Assembly: GCA_016432645.1 (NCBI GenBank)
Contig: CP066698.1
Span: forward strand, 325,062-389,061
Source of the DNA: Candidatus Falkowbacteria bacterium
GTDB taxonomy: Bacteria; Patescibacteriota; Patescibacteriia; Patescibacteriales; UBA12465
Reading direction: 5' to 3'
Length of the DNA stretch: 64,000 nt
Part shown: piece by piece, positions 43,530-55,202 of the stretch
How the letters are laid out: every line of letters starts with the position of its first letter
Position numbering within the stretch: the stretch's first letter is position 1
Position numbers and translations under genes: made by a program
The notes under the pieces: generated by a model
Databases searched by the model: none
Seen by the model: only the letters and a program-made list of their open reading frames with translations
Told to the model about the DNA's origin: nothing

Positions 43530-44165
43530 TTAATTAATAAGCACAAATTCGGCGACTTTTTTATCAGTCACGCTCTGATTAAGCCAAATAGTAATCATTT
43601 TATCGGCCGTAATGTCGCTTAAATTAGCTTCAATCATTTCTCGGCTGCCATTTTCAGAGCTGAATTTTAACATTTTAATACCAACTGGAATTATTACTTT
43701 TTCCTCGCCAGAACTCATAGCCTTTAAGGTTTCCAGCATTTGTGCGCGACTATCGGCAGTTTGCCCGCCCGCTCCTCCAGGACCACCGCCCATCCCCATT
43801 CCCATACCCATGCCAGCGCCTCCTCCAGCAGGAACACCAGTTGTAGTTAAGGAAACACCAGCTTCTTTTTTAGTATTATTATTCTCAGTATTTGTAGCCT
43901 CAGTAGAACTAGCCTGCCTGTTTGGCATTTCAACCTTTAAAACATTAACCTCATTACCTAAGATTGATTTTACTAAACCGCGAATATCGGATGCTCTATC
44001 CGGTTGTCCAAAATCAGGACGATTATTTCTACTAGGATTAAGGGCGGCATTACTCTTGTCAGTCGTAGTGCTTGTTTGGCTATTATCTTTATTAGTTTGA
44101 CCGCAGGCAGTCAAAACAAACAAGAAAAGTAACAAAACAGACGAAAAAGCTAGCTTTTTTTTCAT
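43530..44165 (-). CDS. Lipoprotein with a central Gly/Met/Pro tract (GGGAGMGMGMGMGGGPGGAGG)
   Basis: Signal peptide plus lipobox (LFVLTAC). It is the first gene of the MFP-ABC operon, with a 9-nt gap to the MFP gene. Confidence 0.6.
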   Translation of the reverse strand: MKKKLAFSSVLLLFLFVLTACGQTNKDNSQTSTTTDKSNAALNPSRNNRPDFGQPDRASDIRGLVKSILGNEVNVLKVEMPNRQASSTEATNTENNNTKKEAGVSLTTTGVPAGGGAGMGMGMGMGGGPGGAGGQTADSRAQMLETLKAMSSGEEKVIIPVGIKMLKFSSENGSREMIEANLSDITADKMITIWLNQSVTDKKVAEFVLIN

Positions 44166-47372: not shown

Positions 47373-47405
47373 TCACAAAATTAATCGCCGAAAAGCGATA
47401 AATAG

Positions 47406-47433
47406 AAGGGTTGCCTAACAGCAGCCCTTTTTT
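47406..47433 (+). terminator. Intrinsic terminator after purE-like
   Basis: A 9-bp stem AAGGGTTGC/GCAGCCCTT (one G-U pair) is followed by T6. Confidence 0.7.
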
Positions 47434-47473
47434 AATATTTAACAAAAAATTTATTGCGCGATAAATCAAAAAA

Positions 47474-47482
47474 TGTTATAAT
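47474..47482 (+). promoter_or_regulatory. Extended -10 element TGTTATAAT upstream of the fibre-like gene
   Basis: TG at 47474-47475 and TATAAT at 47477-47482. Confidence 0.5.
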
Positions 47483-47488
47483 TTGAAA

Positions 47489-47513
47489 GTCAGCTACAAT
47501 AAATGTAGCTGAC
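47489..47513 (+). promoter_or_regulatory. Perfect 10-bp 5'-terminal stem-loop in the predicted 5' UTR of the fibre-like gene
   Basis: GTCAGCTACA-ATAAA-TGTAGCTGAC starts 7 nt after the -10 element, at about +1. An A-run follows rather than a T-run, so it is not a terminator in this orientation. Confidence 0.5.
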
Positions 47514-47544
47514 AAAAAAAATAAAAATAACCCGAGAGTAACTT

Positions 47545-50500
47545 ATGAAAAAATCCTCTCTTTATACAAATTTTCACGCCAATCAACTGAAGATGGCTAT
47601 CTTTTTGATTGGTTTTTTATTAATTGCAATTCCAGACAAAACCAATGCTAAGTTAATCACTGTCGGCACCGCCTCCGATATTGTAAGTTTTGGGAATAAC
47701 GTCGGCGTTGGTTCAACCGCCCCTAACCAAAAACTGCATATATTCGATAAGGTTTCCAGTTATGCCACAATAAACATCGAAGGGCCAACGGATACAGCCG
47801 ACAAGGGCGCGGCCATTCTTTTTAACGAAGGAAACGGCGCCACTCAATGGGATGGCGGTCTTTACGGATTTAAAGTGGCCTATGATGGAGGCAATAATTA
47901 TTTATTTTTTGAAGGATTTGGCAATGGAACCAGTGCCGGAAAACATTTAAATATCCTGCGTACAGGCAACGTCGGCATCGGTTTAACTAACCCGGGGACA
48001 AAATTAGATATTACCGGAACTCTTCGTAATTCTCTTGCGACCACTCATTCCTTACTCGGCGGAGCTGGCAATGTAATAATCATGGCCGATAACGATGGAT
48101 CATTATTCTCAGCTACTCCAACAGCTTTCACCGCCTCTATTAACGTCAGTACTTTATATCACATTAAGAAGTGGTTTACTCCCCAAACTGGACAAACAAT
48201 TAGTTCCAGCGGCACAACGGTGACGATGCTCAATCCCGTATCCAGCTATCAATTTTCTTCCAGCATGGTTGGCTCCAGGTTAACAATTAACGGTGAAAGT
48301 CGGGTTATTACCGCTTATACTTCAACTTCAGTAGTCACAGTTGATTCAGCTTACAGCACGAACTATAGTGGCGTGTCCGATACTCTTTGGGGTGTTTATA
48401 GCAAGGCCGTAGAAATTGCTAGCGATGGCTCGGTTTCAACTTATTCAGAAACTGGCAGTATGGCGATTAGAAAGCGCTCAGGGGACGGCAATGTTTATAT
48501 TCCAGCCCTATTAGACTCCACTAACAACTACTATCTTCCTTCTTCAGTTCTCTATTTAGATAAAGACTTTCCAATAAAATGGTCAAACTCAACAAGCTAC
48601 AGCGCCAGTTCAGGCAACGATGTCGGTTTACGTAGAACAGCTACTGGAACCTTGGAAGTTTATAATGGCACCAGCACAACCCCAGGAACAGTAGCCGACT
48701 ACAGAGATTTGAATATTAGAAGTTTCAACCCGGCTGGCGGCAATATTGGCATTGGAACCACAACCCCGTCCAATAATAAACTAACCGTTGTTTCCGACCA
48801 AAGCGGGGGCGGAGTAATAAAAGTCCAAAATACCAATATCGCCTCTTGGTCGTCATACGAAATGTTTGATTACGCCGGAGTTCATAAAACAAGTTTTGGC
48901 TATGCTAATCCCAATGCACCAACAGTCGCGGGCCTAGCTCATTTTAGTACTTCCGATGATACTCCTTTTATTATTGCTATCCACGATTTAGAAAAAATTA
49001 GATTTACGACTGAAGGATATATCGGAGTTGCTCAAACTAATCCCAGTCGACCACTCCATATTTCTTCTACTTCCACCGACCTCGTAGCGGCCGGGAACAA
49101 CAACTCAATGGTAATGATTGATGGATTAATGAACTCAACTAGCAGACAACAGTCAGGCATAGTTTCTAGTCCTTATATCAACCCACCGTCGGCCTCAACC
49201 CAAACTTACATCGGTCTTAACTTCATTCCCAATTCCGATTCTCCATATGTTTCAGGTGCCCAAATAATGGGCTTATATGGAGGCGCATACTACTATGGCA
49301 CTAGTACTCTCGGATATGCCTATGGAGGAATTTTTAAAAATTTTGCCAGTGATACCTCCACTATAACTAGAAGTTACGGCGTTTTTATTGATGATGCTTA
49401 CAGGGCGGCTGGCGCTCACATAACTAATAATTATGGCTTATGGGTGGAAAACCAGACTGCCGGCACTAATAATTATGCCATCTATTCTGAAGGAGGAAAA
49501 AATTATTTTGGCGGTAACGTTGGCATTGGAACAACAACACCCTGGAGCAATCTAACAGTTCGCGGCGTTACTAGCGCCCCATCAATCGTCCGAGGAGCAG
49601 CATCAATATTTAGCGTTGCATCTGCCGATGGTGTAGAATTTGCCTTCACAACTGCTACCTCTTCCCCCTGGACTGCTTCTATCCAAGTTAGAGACGTGCC
49701 TGAAGGAAGCGGGGATTTAGCCTATCCTTTAGCCCTAAACCCTGTCGGTGGAAACGTTGGGATTGGAACAGCAGCGCCTAATCAAAAATTAGATATCGCA
49801 GGAAATGTTCATATTAGAGGTGCTGGGACCTTATATAATAATGCTGGGGCCGCCGAACTTCATATTGGTTATGGCATTGCCTCTCCCGGCACTGTCGGCA
49901 GCGTAGCTAGATTAGCGCTTCAGCCATACGGCCACACTGGAGGACCATGGAAATTTGTTACTAGGGACACTGCCGGAGCTGCTTATTTAGATTTTGATTA
50001 TTCATCTCTTCATGCCTTAACATTAGACTCATCAGGAAACGTCGGAATCGGAACTCAGTCACCTAACGTAAAATTATACGTTTCTGGCCAGAGTGTCACT
50101 TTTTTATCAGCCACCAGCTCCAACACAATGTTAATGGGCAGAAATTCAACAGAAAATCTTTACATATATCAAGATGATACTAGCGTGACTTTCGAATCAG
50201 TCCAAGATGAAAATACTGCCGGCTTCGGTAATATGATTTTTAAAGTTGACAATGATGGAACCGCTGATGGTTATTTTGCTTTCCAAAATAAAGCCGCTAC
50301 GAACTTCATGAGAATAACGGCTACTGGCAGCGTTGCCATTGGCACCACTGCTCCGGTCTCCAGATTATCAGTAACAACTTCTACTTTCCTGGATAATACC
50401 CACGCTATTTCTTTTGGTGATAATTTAAACTATTACTACGGTATTGGTATTGCCGGCGGCTCCGGCACCGAAGGAGTTGGTATTTGGGGCGGCTCGGAAG

Positions 50501-50874
50501 GCACTGATAAATCCTTAACTAATCCCAATCTTTTTGTTAAAAGGGGCGGTAATGTTGGCATTGGCACAACAGCTCCAGCAGCTAAACTAGATGTCGCCGG
50601 AACAACAAAACTAGGGACTGCCGGCGGTGCTTTTACCGCCATGGGAACATGTACCATCGCTTCGACCGCAATTTCAACTACAAAAACAAATTATACCTGT
50701 ACCGGCGTTCCCGCCTCAACCGCTGTGGCCGTAAATTGCAGTGGCGCAAACACTCAGAGTGGCGCCGGAACTTTATATTGCCGTGCCACTGGAACAGCCG
50801 ACCAGGTTGCCTGCAATACTTCAGCCGCCAATACCACGGCGATGACCTGGACTTGTATGTGGATTCAGCCGTAA
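47545..50874 (+). CDS. Giant secreted/surface fibre-like protein with nine G-N-V-G-I-G-T-x-x-P-x-x-K-L-x-V motifs and a Cys-rich C-terminal module
   Basis: 1109 aa with N-terminal signal/anchor MAIFLIGFLLIAIPDKTNA. Motif copies include GNNVGVGSTAPNQKLHI, GNVGIGLTNPGTKLDI, GGNIGIGTTTPSNNKLTV, GGNVGIGTTTPWSNLTV, GGNVGIGTAAPNQKLDI, GNVGIGTQSPNVKLYV, GSVAIGTTAPVSRLSV and GGNVGIGTTAPAAKLDV. All 6 Cys residues lie in the last ~70 residues. Confidence 0.6.
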   Translation: MKKSSLYTNFHANQLKMAIFLIGFLLIAIPDKTNAKLITVGTASDIVSFGNNVGVGSTAPNQKLHIFDKVSSYATINIEGPTDTADKGAAILFNEGNGATQWDGGLYGFKVAYDGGNNYLFFEGFGNGTSAGKHLNILRTGNVGIGLTNPGTKLDITGTLRNSLATTHSLLGGAGNVIIMADNDGSLFSATPTAFTASINVSTLYHIKKWFTPQTGQTISSSGTTVTMLNPVSSYQFSSSMVGSRLTINGESRVITAYTSTSVVTVDSAYSTNYSGVSDTLWGVYSKAVEIASDGSVSTYSETGSMAIRKRSGDGNVYIPALLDSTNNYYLPSSVLYLDKDFPIKWSNSTSYSASSGNDVGLRRTATGTLEVYNGTSTTPGTVADYRDLNIRSFNPAGGNIGIGTTTPSNNKLTVVSDQSGGGVIKVQNTNIASWSSYEMFDYAGVHKTSFGYANPNAPTVAGLAHFSTSDDTPFIIAIHDLEKIRFTTEGYIGVAQTNPSRPLHISSTSTDLVAAGNNNSMVMIDGLMNSTSRQQSGIVSSPYINPPSASTQTYIGLNFIPNSDSPYVSGAQIMGLYGGAYYYGTSTLGYAYGGIFKNFASDTSTITRSYGVFIDDAYRAAGAHITNNYGLWVENQTAGTNNYAIYSEGGKNYFGGNVGIGTTTPWSNLTVRGVTSAPSIVRGAASIFSVASADGVEFAFTTATSSPWTASIQVRDVPEGSGDLAYPLALNPVGGNVGIGTAAPNQKLDIAGNVHIRGAGTLYNNAGAAELHIGYGIASPGTVGSVARLALQPYGHTGGPWKFVTRDTAGAAYLDFDYSSLHALTLDSSGNVGIGTQSPNVKLYVSGQSVTFLSATSSNTMLMGRNSTENLYIYQDDTSVTFESVQDENTAGFGNMIFKVDNDGTADGYFAFQNKAATNFMRITATGSVAIGTTAPVSRLSVTTSTFLDNTHAISFGDNLNYYYGIGIAGGSGTEGVGIWGGSEGTDKSLTNPNLFVKRGGNVGIGTTAPAAKLDVAGTTKLGTAGGAFTAMGTCTIASTAISTTKTNYTCTGVPASTAVAVNCSGANTQSGAGTLYCRATGTADQVACNTSAANTTAMTWTCMWIQP

Positions 50875-50932
50875 TCAAGCAGTAAAAACTGAGATAAATA
50901 ATTAAATAAATCAATATCTATAACGTTATCCT

Positions 50933-52366
50933 ATGCCTAACATCCAAGAGACTCCGGATTCTCAAATCGGAGTAATCAAAAAAACCAAAAGCGTCTTTCT
51001 CGCTCCCGTGAAATCAAAAGGGGTTTTAGCCTCGGTAGGAGTGGTGTTAATTGCTCTTGTCGCTCTGATATTCGTAAATTATTTTTCCCTCATGAAAACT
51101 CGCCAGGAATTACAAAATTATTCAGCTATCACCGCAAATCTGGAAAATGAATTAAAAACCATTTCCAAGAGGTCTACTTTAGTTTCCAGCTGGCGCAGTT
51201 TTGGCGACAGTTTCTCTTCATACGCTTATGTTTCCAAAGAGGAAACTGATATGTTTTTTGATGAAAGAGTTACTGCTTTCAGTTTTCCGCCGGTCTATAG
51301 TTTTAATTCCGTTTCTGGATGCGAAAATGCAAGCTGCGATTTAAAATCAAACTCTCTAGTGGCCACGGACCAGGATAGCAGCCAACAAATAAGCAAAGTC
51401 CCCGCCGAATTAAAGGATAAAAAAATTATTTCTTCCAGCCTTAATAAATTAAATTCCCTACAAGTGGCCTCCTTTATTGTCGCTGACGGCCAGGAAGAAA
51501 GGGCTTATGTTTATTTTTTTGATGGCAAAAAATTTACCCCGATTATCACCGCTAACACGGAAAATCAAATAATCACCAAATATAGTCGTGGTGGTGGCGC
51601 CATCGTAGCTGGTGGCGACGACAAGGATTTTATTATTCTCTATATCGGTTATGAGGGCTTAGGTTTCCATTATAAAAATGGGCAATTAAAAAATATTTCT
51701 GATTTCTTTGGCCTGAGAGTGGCTGACAATGGCTTCAAACCATACATAATTAAAGATGGTAAGGATAATAGTGCCGTTTGGTATATTTTAAGCTTAAATA
51801 GCAGTAAACCAAAACTCATAAAACTCTGGCAAAATGGAACACCGGAAATAGTCGGCGCCGTAGATTTAAGCAATGTTTTTGATGATACCGAAGGAGCCTT
51901 AGTCGCTTTTGCCTCCGGAGATAAGGCGCAAGAAATTAAATTTATCTTCAAAAAAGACGGCAGCACCAATGTTAATGCTCCCGCACAAATTTTAATTCCC
52001 GGCGCTTCATCACAGACAGAAGTAAAAATGCCTGCTTCCCTGTCACCTTATGAGTTAAGATTATTCTCAGACAAAGGCTTTGATAATACGATTGATCGTT
52101 CTGTAGTATCAGTAAATCTCAACGAAGCGCAAGGAGCCGTTACTAAGGCTAAAATAAACGAAATCGGCGTCAACGGCGAAGTAAAGTTATTCCTTTCTAA
52201 TTCGGATAAGATATTTGTTGAAACCAAAGAAAATGAAGAAATTAGCTTTTCTATGCATGGCCGCGACTTATTCTGGAGAACTGATTTCCCTAAGGGCCAG
52301 AGCAGCCAATATTCTCCCTGGTTTGATAATATCAACTACTTAGACTATTATTTACAAGTCGATTAA
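50933..52366 (+). CDS. Membrane-anchored hypothetical protein, probably co-transcribed with the fibre-like gene
   Basis: 477 aa with a single TM helix (VLASVGVVLIALVALIFVNYF). No terminator occurs in the 58-nt gap after the 1109-aa gene. No family is recognised. Confidence 0.5.
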   Translation: MPNIQETPDSQIGVIKKTKSVFLAPVKSKGVLASVGVVLIALVALIFVNYFSLMKTRQELQNYSAITANLENELKTISKRSTLVSSWRSFGDSFSSYAYVSKEETDMFFDERVTAFSFPPVYSFNSVSGCENASCDLKSNSLVATDQDSSQQISKVPAELKDKKIISSSLNKLNSLQVASFIVADGQEERAYVYFFDGKKFTPIITANTENQIITKYSRGGGAIVAGGDDKDFIILYIGYEGLGFHYKNGQLKNISDFFGLRVADNGFKPYIIKDGKDNSAVWYILSLNSSKPKLIKLWQNGTPEIVGAVDLSNVFDDTEGALVAFASGDKAQEIKFIFKKDGSTNVNAPAQILIPGASSQTEVKMPASLSPYELRLFSDKGFDNTIDRSVVSVNLNEAQGAVTKAKINEIGVNGEVKLFLSNSDKIFVETKENEEISFSMHGRDLFWRTDFPKGQSSQYSPWFDNINYLDYYLQVD

Positions 52367-53607: not shown

Positions 53608-54903
53608 TTAGTAAGCTTGATTTTTCAGACTTTCTAAGTCTTTTTTAATAGCTTCAACCAGTAATTCCGGAGTAGCAAATTTTTCCAGCTCCCTGATTTT
53701 GCCCAAAACCTCAACTTGAAGATTTTCGCCGTAAATATCACTCGAAAAATCAACTATTAAAATTTCCAAAGAAACTTCTTCTTTAAAAACATCCTTAAAA
53801 CCAAAATGCATCAAACCGGAATATGACCGATTATCAAACATTATCTTAACGGCATAAACGCCGTGGACAATATCTAAATCGGTTTTATCCAAATTGGCGG
53901 TCGGATAACCTAACAGCTTGCCTCGCCCCTGGCCATGGATTACTTTTCCGGAAAAAATTATTTTTTTAGTCCGGCCTAATATGGAGATTTTATAAAAAGC
54001 TAAGAGTAAAACGGCTAGTGCCGTCAGCTGCATCCAGTTCAAATAATTATGATTAAAAATATAATCCAAAACTAAAGCCGAAAATGGCCAAAATAATTCC
54101 AAAATAGTCGCTGCCGAAGCCGGAACGCGCCGCAAACCAAAATAATAAATAAACATCGAGCCGGCGCCGCTGGTTAAAACGATTAAACCCAAGAGGCTCC
54201 ATTGCTTAATACTCACTAGTGGCAAAGAACCAAAAGAACCGCTAACCAAAACTAGAATGATTGCTAAAATTGAAGTCAAGCCAAAACGCAAAGCGGCCAC
54301 TGCCTTATAATCTAGATGGTTAGAAATCCGTTTGCCAAAAACGGTTGATGAACCAAAAGCAAAAGCAGCAATAAAGGCGAATAAAGCACCATTATGGAGC
54401 CAGTCAATTCCCCAAAAATCAGCGCCCAAATTAGCAAACGCGATAAAATAAGAAGCGGCGATGGCGGCGATGGCCCAGCCATAAAACTTTTTCGGAAGCC
54501 TCTCACCTAAAATTAAACGCGCTAAAAGCAGAGCAAAAATCGGCTGTAATTTTTGAAGAATAACCACGGTCGCGAAACTGACTTCCCCGTCCATCGCGGC
54601 AAAAAAAGCTTTAGTGATAAAAACTGTTCCAATTAAACCACCAAACAAACTAACCCAACCGAGAGCCAGCCAACTTTTATGACTAAGGGTTTTTATCTTC
54701 GGCCAGAAAATAAAAACAAAAGGCGAAAGCACGATAAAACCGAGAAGATGTTCCAGCATAACCACCAGCTCGGCCGGTAAAACATAGAACTGCGGTCTAA
54801 TGAATAAACCGTCAATGCTCCAAAATAAAGCGGCGAGCATAATCGCCACCGAGCCGGCTAATTGTCCGGGCTTAAATTTTAACCTTAAATTGCTTGCAGA
54901 CAT
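53608..54903 (-). CDS. Fusion protein: EamA/DMT-family transporter (N-terminal ~300 aa, ~10 TM) + riboflavin kinase domain (C-terminal ~125 aa)
   Basis: The C-terminus GKVIHGQGRGKLLGYPTANL...HGVYAVKI...GLMHFG...LEILIVDFSSDIYGENLQVEVLGKIRELEKF is the RibF kinase domain (PTAN motif). The N-terminus is a double-EamA membrane domain. Start MSASNL at 54903 avoids overlap with the DUF1294 gene. Confidence 0.75.
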   Translation of the reverse strand: MSASNLRLKFKPGQLAGSVAIMLAALFWSIDGLFIRPQFYVLPAELVVMLEHLLGFIVLSPFVFIFWPKIKTLSHKSWLALGWVSLFGGLIGTVFITKAFFAAMDGEVSFATVVILQKLQPIFALLLARLILGERLPKKFYGWAIAAIAASYFIAFANLGADFWGIDWLHNGALFAFIAAFAFGSSTVFGKRISNHLDYKAVAALRFGLTSILAIILVLVSGSFGSLPLVSIKQWSLLGLIVLTSGAGSMFIYYFGLRRVPASAATILELFWPFSALVLDYIFNHNYLNWMQLTALAVLLLAFYKISILGRTKKIIFSGKVIHGQGRGKLLGYPTANLDKTDLDIVHGVYAVKIMFDNRSYSGLMHFGFKDVFKEEVSLEILIVDFSSDIYGENLQVEVLGKIRELEKFATPELLVEAIKKDLESLKNQAY

Positions 54904-54911
54904 GTATTTAA

Positions 54912-55202
54912 TTATTTGTTTAATAAGTATAAATATATTAACCAGGCGGCCGCTAAATTTTGCAAAAATAATAAGGGGATGCCTATTAAGAAATACCATT
55001 TCCTGGTTTTATGGCGAAAAACGAACATTCCCAGATAAACACCCAAAGCGCCAAAAGCAGATCCTAAAAAGAATAGCAAGCCTTCGGAAATTCGGGAAGA
55101 GCCAGGATTGGCAGATTTTAATTTATCCAAAAACATCAAGAAAAAAACGATTAAATTAGTAGCCAGCAAAAAGGCTAAGATTAGAAGCAAAGTATTGTTC
55201 AT
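54912..55202 (-). CDS. DUF1294 family small membrane protein
   Basis: LMFLDKLKS..RISEGLLFFLGSAFGALGVYLGMFVFRHKTRKWYF matches the DUF1294 pattern (RIxE...FRHKTxKxxF). Confidence 0.75.
   Translation of the reverse strand: MNNTLLLILAFLLATNLIVFFLMFLDKLKSANPGSSRISEGLLFFLGSAFGALGVYLGMFVFRHKTRKWYFLIGIPLLFLQNLAAAWLIYLYLLNK

Follow-up and report, generated by a model that had tools for sequence, protein, structure and literature searches.

Within the window analysed here, that is, the whole stretch of 64,000 nucleotides taken from contig CP066698.1 (GenBank assembly GCA_016432645.1, positions 325,062 to 389,061), two consecutive open reading frames (ORFs) lie on the + strand, 58 nt apart (Table 1). 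The first, HY931_01880, encodes a secreted protein of 1109 aa with similarity to phage tail fibres and to the mosaic adhesive trimer (MAT) fibres of a bacterial predator, and the second encodes a membrane-anchored protein of 477 aa, hereafter the partner. An earlier note, made from the DNA letters, had suspected an episymbiotic bacterium with a small genome as the source and had described the pair as a fibre-like adhesin with a dedicated partner; the organism is indeed a member of the Patescibacteria, represented by a metagenome-assembled genome (MAG) of Candidatus Falkowbacteria.

The features of the fibre that had been read from the letters were borne out by our counts. The N-terminal signal or anchor sequence proved to be a Sec-type signal peptide, with a basic n-region, a hydrophobic stretch at aa 17-29 and a cleavage site between TNA and K, of which the Ala at -1 and the Lys at +1 are invariant in the orthologues (signal-peptide and topology calls were made by rule, without a predictor). 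The nine copies of the motif GNVGIGTxxPxxKLxV resolve into seven that match the strict pattern G[NS][VI][GA][IV]G and two degenerate ones, GNNVGVGSTAPNQKLHI at aa 49 and EGYIGVAQTNPSRPLHI at aa 491; when the residues of the protein were shuffled 20,000 times, the strict pattern occurred on average 0.0097 times and at most twice. In line with the described richness in Ser, Thr, Gly and Asn, the composition is G 12.0%, T 11.8%, S 10.5%, A 9.5% and N 7.3%, these five residues together accounting for 51% of the protein. All six cysteines (aa 1036, 1052, 1065, 1079, 1090 and 1104) fall within the final 74 residues.

Table 1. Features of the fibre locus, numbered from the first letter of the window.
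Feature	Coordinates	Strand	Basis
Terminator-like hairpin closing the upstream purE unit	47404..47431	+	11-pair stem followed by a T-run; kept in 5 syntenic loci
Promoter-like site: TTGCGC, 17-nt spacer, extended -10 TGTTATAAT	47454..47482	+	Sequence reading; nearly invariant in 5 syntenic loci
10-bp perfect inverted repeat GTCAGCTACA-ATAAA-TGTAGCTGAC, at predicted mRNA 5' end	47489..47513	+	Sequence
Fibre gene HY931_01880, secreted tail-fibre-like / MAT-like, 1109 aa	47545..50874	+	Motifs; PHROG, PDB and database matches
Signal peptide, aa 1-35, predicted cleavage TNA/K	47545..47649	+	Sequence; -3/-1 rule satisfied
Motif copy 1 (degenerate), aa 49-64	47689..47736	+	Motif search; collinearity with orthologues breaks here
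Motif copy 2, aa 141-156	47965..48012	+	Motif search, diagonal analysis
Conserved core M2-M3, aa 141-490	47965..49014	+	Collinear in 6 of 7 relatives compared; in P0018 just the start of M2
Motif copy 3, aa 399-414	48739..48786	+	Motif search
Motif copy 4 (degenerate), aa 491-506	49015..49062	+	Motif search
Motif copy 5, aa 657-672	49513..49560	+	Motif search, diagonal analysis
Motif copy 6, aa 736-751	49750..49797	+	Motif search, diagonal analysis
Motif copy 7, aa 831-846	50035..50082	+	Motif search, diagonal analysis
Motif copy 8, aa 928-943	50326..50373	+	Motif search
Motif copy 9, aa 1002-1017, immediately N-terminal of the tip	50548..50595	+	Aligns with the last capping loop of Bd2133 (8OND)
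Cys-rich tip domain, aa 1034-1109, six strands, six Cys	50644..50871	+	AlphaFold2 model; cluster search; Cys pattern
Partner gene, 477 aa, N-in single-pass, beta-propeller-like plus beta-sandwich ectodomain	50933..52366	+	Sequence, AlphaFold2 model, neighbourhoods
Partner transmembrane segment, aa ~31-53	51023..51091	+	Hydrophobic stretch following K-rich N-terminus; inside modelled helix 29-77

No Pfam or NCBIfam family was matched by the fibre (Pfam at E ≤ 1), and the C-terminal S74 domain (PF13884) was likewise absent at this Pfam threshold, the fibre of locus L026 serving as positive control (E 1e-19). In PHROGs, the protein matched the tail-fibre families 9942 with E 1e-20 and 18345 with E 9e-17. 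Its sole PDB sequence match (E 1.5e-6) was 8OND, the structure of the tip region of Bd2133, a MAT fibre of Bdellovibrio, in which the motifs of the window align onto GNLGLGTAAPTSALHV and GNVGIGATAPTAKLEV, both of them capping loops. Furthermore, aa 657-1033 align with a 'chaperone of endosialidase' protein of the Synechococcus phages S-CRES1/2 (31% identity, 96% coverage, E 2e-21), PF13884 is carried by many of the 281 database homologues, and some homologues from Patescibacteria bear the NCBI label 'tail fiber domain-containing protein'. The earlier note was thus right in linking the motif to tail-fibre proteins and to proteins associated with S74. Homology of the shaft to those of phage tail fibres, S74 proteins and the MAT fibre Bd2133 is well supported by these alignments, and we regard the 1109-aa protein as very probably a fibre. 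When its AlphaFold2 (AF2) model was compared with PDB structures by Foldseek, no significant match was obtained, the best being the fibre tip of AP22 gp53 (E 0.42), followed by H-type lectins.

Matches to PHROG tail-fibre families and similarity to phage S74 fibres would also be expected of a phage or prophage tail-fibre gene, or of its remnant. The surroundings of the gene make this so improbable that we give it almost no weight. Upstream lie the housekeeping genes purC and purE, and downstream a convergent gene for an HI0933-like flavoprotein is followed by an EamA-flavokinase fusion and an ABC-F protein; the order purE, fibre, an optional gene for a membrane protein of ~120 aa, the 477-aa protein and the HI0933-like gene was also found in four other related assemblies, so that the housekeeping flanks are conserved in five genomes. 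No phage genes occur nearby, and the tip domain of the fibre was not found in IMG/VR. Instead of a phage structural-gene setting without a secretion signal, the fibre gene thus has housekeeping flanks and a Sec-type signal peptide, and from these two features it follows that the locus is chromosomal and not part of a prophage.

In order to compare the fibre with its relatives, the protein was cut at the motifs into a signal peptide, modules M1 to M9 and a tip, and was set against six orthologues and one orthologous locus. The signal peptide, M2-M3 and M9 together with the tip recur across these relatives, while M1 and M4-M8 have been moved, swapped or replaced. A diagonal analysis, which is independent of the cuts, gave the same pattern, and all breaks fell within the shared motif. 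Relative to the orthologue P0002, for instance, residues 1-64, 49-158, 140-668, 650-751 and 825-1109 of the window fibre correspond to residues 1-64, 738-847, 129-657, 44-145 and 824-1108, respectively. In the L012 orthologue, nothing corresponds to M6, and M1 is found between M5 and M7; the partner at that locus is 91% identical. Overall, the fibre is 67-76% identical and rearranged among these genomes, the flanking genes being 65-95% identical. The body of M2 (aa 186-398) is present also in paralogues of ~820 aa; it has no match in Pfam, and a profile built on it gave none in PDB or PHROG.

These alignments suggest that, among close relatives, the gene diversifies mainly by the movement, swapping or replacement of whole shaft modules, with the joints inside the motif. 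That the motif acts as a DNA-level repeat offering long homology for recombination was considered and rejected, since its copies differ in synonymous codons; the motif is therefore conserved as a structure and not as a DNA repeat. The position of the joints may reflect either short micro-homology or the survival of only those recombinants that were joined at domain boundaries. The locus offers a clean natural example of what appears to be fibre diversification through cassette shuffling at a structural motif.

The tip contrasted with this variable shaft. The earlier note had suggested looking for hypervariability in the C-terminal knob, and a hypervariable knob was rejected: identity of the tip was 87-92% in five of the six orthologues and 67% in the sixth (P0003), compared with about 70% for the whole protein, which places the tip among the best-conserved parts, and it is the content and order of the shaft modules that vary. 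The view of the Cys-containing end as a separate knob fared better, the last ~80 residues (aa 1030-1109) being the only part of the fibre that folded confidently in the AF2 monomer, as a small beta domain of six strands (pLDDT 65-83). When 1.84 billion cluster representatives were searched exhaustively with phmmer, homologues of the tip were found in 100 clusters, 67 of them with E<1e-10, and in almost all of the 100 clusters the match lies at the extreme C-terminus. No match to the tip was found in Pfam, PHROGs, PDB sequences, PDB folds or IMG/VR.

With regard to the cysteines, Cys1, Cys2, Cys3 and Cys6 are invariant in the tip alignment. Cys4 and Cys5 (C1079 and C1090) are both kept in 63 members (pattern CCCCCC) and both lost in 32 (CCCxxC), mostly through replacement by Ala together with Val, Met or Ile, and no member was observed to keep Cys4 without Cys5 at the aligned residue. 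This joint retention or loss indicates a disulfide between C1079 and C1090 in a buried position, so that the disulfide bracing proposed in the earlier note is supported for at least one bond; the other four cysteines probably form two further bonds. The least conserved stretches, between Cys1 and Cys2 and between Cys3 and Cys4, could be exposed loops.

All proteins that carry this tip are rich in Thr, Ser, Ala and Gly and fibre-like, some of them lacking GNVGIG and having other shaft repeats. Among 70 full-length carriers, 56 have a signal peptide and five a lipoprotein lipobox, an arrangement that would put the N-terminal end on the cell and the tip away from it. Many carriers also have a separate conserved N-terminal domain (F.FEGRL), which is absent from the window fibre and with which a search yielded two matches. 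The carrier P0215, which has a different N-terminal domain, is encoded in a diderm context (ExbB, MotB/OmpA and heptosyltransferase genes), and the tip family therefore crosses phyla. The Cys-rich domain might, alternatively, be a cell-proximal anchor or sorting module: this end of the protein varies least, the N-terminal module being the variable one, and, like C-terminal sorting domains, the Cys-rich domain is common to proteins of differing N-terminal architecture. We consider this quite improbable, given the five carriers with N-terminal lipoboxes, the many with an F.FEGRL domain of their own, and the distal position of the C-terminus in MAT and phage fibres. In addition, a diderm as well as a lineage of the candidate phyla radiation (CPR) possess the domain, and since the envelopes of these differ, an anchor target shared by both is unlikely.

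The second gene encodes, as the earlier note had stated, a single-pass membrane protein located 58 nt 3' of the fibre ORF, with no terminator in the gap; the coordinates and a terminator scan both agree with this. Its AF2 model was confident (pLDDT 83, pTM 0.75) and consists of a K-rich N-terminus, a long helix (aa 29-77) comprising the hydrophobic membrane segment and a stalk, and a beta-rich ectodomain with four-strand groups at aa ~165-340 followed by a beta-sandwich at aa ~373-475. Among relatives with rearranged fibres, the partner is 81-91% identical and thereby equals the best-conserved housekeeping neighbours. Homologues with 25-91% identity adjoin motif-bearing fibre genes on the same strand in all 28 loci recovered from GTDB species genomes, and in further metagenome loci the partner likewise stands beside fibre genes, which speaks for the dedicated partner that the earlier note had envisaged.

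The closest folds to the partner in the PDB are propeller-plus-sandwich glycoside hydrolases (GHs) and sialidases (Foldseek, E 4e-4 to 1e-3, TM score 0.19-0.26), and the weak matches in BFVD (E 7e-8 to 2e-4) are to Caudovirales proteins that have not been characterised, to a lectin protein of ConA-like type and to the tail fibre of a Vibrio phage. On account of these matches, and of a second fibre locus in the same genome that has no partner, the protein could be independent of the fibre and only accompany it in the genome, acting as a surface lectin, as a glycosidase-like protein or in receptor binding of its own. This is rather unlikely in our view, as the TM scores are about 0.2 and no hidden Markov model (HMM) of a GH, lectin or PDB family was matched, conservation at housekeeping level suits a role directed at the cell itself better than one directed at a host, and the adjacency to fibre genes persists down to 25% identity. 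Membership of the five- or six-bladed propeller families GH43, GH32 or sialidase was rejected on the same HMM and TM values. The label 'pseudopilin PulG', which JGI gives to one partner homologue, is also unsupported: the class III signal is absent and there is only a transmembrane helix. The reading we prefer, that the partner is a tether or assembly factor for the fibre, is tentative and falls somewhat short of even odds; it is the best candidate for such a role because the fibre has no anchor of its own.

MATs have been described as phage-like surface fibres of a bacterial predator that bear an S74 chaperone or a tip of another fold at the end, the non-S74 tips folding independently; what holds them on the cell surface has yet to be identified, and the other lineages listed in that study (Oligoflexia, PVC, Alpha- and Deltaproteobacteria, the FCB group and OP3) include no Patescibacteria (Caulton et al. 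2024, PMC10769870). Three MAT hallmarks are found in the window fibre, namely the signal peptide, the capping-loop motif (V-G-G/N-pi-x-x-P-x-x-x-L) and an independent non-S74 tip. The likeness to Bd2133 of Bdellovibrio bacteriovorus (PDB 8OND) extends to a length of about 1000 aa, several paralogues per genome, mosaic evolution, a repeated capping-loop motif (GNVGIGxxAPxxKLxV in Bd2133) and a beta-sandwich tip that folds on its own; both are cellular and not viral, and Bdellovibrio is an organism that lives on other bacteria. However, the window fibre comes from a Patescibacteria MAG and has a tip of another fold family, its mosaicism concerns the order of shaft modules with a constant tip, and it is accompanied by a gene for a membrane-anchored partner, none having been described for MATs.

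The S74 tail fibres and tailspikes of phages (K1F endosialidase, T5 pb1; PF13884) share homologous shaft modules and the motif with the window fibre, and partner-adjacent fibres in other genomes end in PF13884; the window fibre differs in lacking the S74 domain, in its signal peptide and in its housekeeping context. Phage tail-fibre assembly chaperones of the Tfa or T4 gp38 type are encoded just downstream of fibre genes and act in the cytoplasm. Like them, the partner is an accessory gene product encoded right after a fibre gene without intramolecular chaperone, but it is much larger, membrane-anchored and equipped with an external domain, and no sequence or fold similarity was found. In the mosaic tail-fibre genes of phages and R-type pyocins, modules are exchanged at conserved boundaries. 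This holds for the window fibre too, except that its junction is conserved at the protein level only and that shaft cassettes are exchanged instead of the receptor-binding tip. Literature searches with the motif string and for MAT-like fibres in CPR returned nothing, nor did the literature consulted contain anything on the tip or the partner in CPR. The fibre is a further member of a known fibre type; the partner family, the fibre-cupredoxin-partner cassette described below, the cross-phylum Cys tip and the cassette shuffling, taken together, set the locus as a whole apart as a variant of it.

Taken as a whole, the locus is best explained, with a probability of roughly 0.6, by a cellular fibre of the tail-fibre/MAT type that is exported by Sec and has shuffled shaft modules, a disulfide-braced tip and a membrane partner. 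Under this explanation, the signal peptide would be removed on export, the nine capping-loop motifs would delimit shaft modules of beta-helix type, and the protein, once outside the membrane, would form trimers and so a long beta-helical fibre whose distal end is the tip, a self-folding beta-sandwich of ~75 residues braced by two or three disulfides. The fibre would project from the Falkowbacteria surface, and its tip might bind a conserved ligand on another cell, the host; exchange of shaft cassettes could change length, flexibility or lateral binding surfaces. The co-transcribed partner would sit in the membrane with its beta domains outward, its conservation resembling that of proteins directed at components of the cell itself, and could tether the fibre or help to assemble it there. 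Since the surface holder of MATs awaits identification, the dedicated partner can be put forward as a concrete candidate for such a holder in the present lineage. Host attachment by the fibre, taken separately, we put at even odds.

Several points weigh against this explanation. Firstly, the conserved N-terminal anchor domain of MATs (~130 aa) is not evident in the window fibre, in which ~25 conserved mature residues are followed by a first module that differs in the orthologues, the N-terminus having been judged by comparison within its clade. Secondly, the AF2 model of the full-length monomer (21-sequence alignment) was uninformative, with a mean pLDDT of 39.8 and values of ~35-45 in the shaft, and the trimeric state, for which an intertwined homotrimer would be expected, is deduced from shaft homology. 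Thirdly, the combination of a conserved tip with a variable shaft is the reverse of the usual 'variable tip' pattern, so that the ligand of the tip might be invariant, or the tip might form the proximal end. As for the partner, no Pfam, NCBIfam or PDB-profile match was obtained, including any GH or lectin family, its fold matches are weak (TM about 0.2) and give no pointer to function, and no homologue is present in the second fibre locus (L040) of the same genome. Finally, Falkowbacteria are uncultured.

The fibre might also serve as a general envelope or adhesion structure, be it an S-layer-like coat or a means of aggregation or particle attachment, and not in host recognition. A large, secreted, Ser/Thr/Gly/Asn-rich protein with a conserved and not a diversified tip, encoded in a genome with several other fibres, would suit such a role, yet among characterised proteins its nearest relatives are fibres with which phages and a bacterial predator bind receptors, partner-adjacent fibres bear swappable tips of adhesive type (S74, Fib_succ_major, Cys tip), and neither SLH nor another wall-binding domain was found in the Pfam search. 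We therefore judge a general envelope role unlikely, though less so than an anchoring function of the Cys domain.

How ultrasmall CPR/Patescibacteria recognise and hold their hosts is largely unknown, type IV pili being the only well-supported players. The Falkowbacteria genome appears to encode a phage-derived fibre of the kind with which Bdellovibrio recognises its prey, and the locus offers two unannotated, testable parts, a cross-phylum tip that is probably disulfide-braced and a conserved membrane partner. A much wider generalisation, which we offer as speculation and think unlikely to hold in full, is that Patescibacteria carry a cell-borne counterpart of the phage fibre and baseplate, in which trimeric fibres with exchangeable cassettes and tips would be docked or assembled by a conserved membrane beta-propeller protein and would set which host cells can be attached to. 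The tips would then comprise the Cys tip, S74, Fib_succ_major and the 'YRLxGxRxDW..WPT' domain, and the commoner form would add accessory proteins of cupredoxin fold.

The 28 GTDB loci bear record titles of Falkowbacteria, Patescibacteria group and Paceibacterota, besides some third-party MAGs doubtfully labelled Gammaproteobacteria. The usual gene order is a fibre with a '...SYRLxG[KR]RxDWxxWPT' end, none to three cupredoxin-like proteins, the partner and, often, another fibre, which ends in S74 (PF13884, E 1e-19) or Fib_succ_major (PF09603, E 3e-28). In the clade of the window, the Cys tip takes the place of the SYRLxG-type domain and there are no cupredoxin genes, so that this clade has a simplified cassette. 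The second fibre locus of the same genome, L040, holds three fibre genes (1744, 1690 and 836 aa) and genes for a LamG protein, a cupredoxin and an S74 protein of 174 aa. Immediately 5' of this row of fibres stand three pseudopilin-like genes (GFTLVE/GFSLVE N-termini), a gene order that hints at a link between pili and fibres.

Some observations on these loci may be added. Titles such as 'uncultured Gammaproteobacteria' (in one case 'Atribacterota'), given to L016, L019, L021-L026, L031, L034-L036 and L039 in third-party MAGs, look unreliable. In most genomes, the fibre encoded upstream of the partner terminates in the SYRLxG-type domain ('TIDPLY.I.G.NYSTFA ... SYRLxG[KR]RxDWxxWPT.A.DQ'), which spans ~150 aa and has no Pfam annotation (for example, L026 2256-6866, L027 4875-8735 and L037 4511-8059). 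In most loci (L008/L026, L010, L014 and L016-L036; for example, L020 2274-5587), fibre and partner are separated by one to three cupredoxin-like genes (~230 aa, PF13473), some of the products retaining a type-1 copper motif (C..PGH...GE.G.M) and others having lost its Cys and His.

With regard to transcription, the hairpin upstream of the fibre gene is the sole strong terminator-like site on the + strand, none being present between the fibre and partner ORFs; since it ends the purE unit, the fibre gene would have a transcript start of its own. The promoter-like site that follows was missed by a consensus scan because its -35 hexamer is weak. The inverted repeat, which lies where the mRNA is predicted to begin, keeps its stem ends (GTCAG/CTGAC) across orthologous loci and varies in its interior. 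The fibre and the partner are probably co-transcribed. The purE-fibre intergenic region (47373-47544) is 89% conserved in five genomes and in this exceeds several adjacent coding genes. At the other end, the stop region of the partner (52363-52366) shares 4 nt with the 3' end of the convergent HI0933-like gene, an overlap that leaves no room for a terminator between the two.

The extra gene of ~120 aa, encoding one membrane helix and a low-complexity tail, separates fibre and partner in L001 (7593-7952) and L005 (11273-11638), the window having the 58-nt spacer only. On the - strand, a 463-aa ORF (53608-54999) encodes an EamA-type transporter fused to a flavokinase (riboflavin kinase), by domain calls taken from syntenic loci, and this fusion suggests coupled uptake and phosphorylation of riboflavin. 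A lipoprotein-like ORF of 211 aa on the same strand (43530-44165), with an LTAC lipobox and the low-complexity stretch GMGMGMGGGPGGAGG, adjoins genes of MacB, ABC and periplasmic-adaptor type, as found in the syntenic locus L005.

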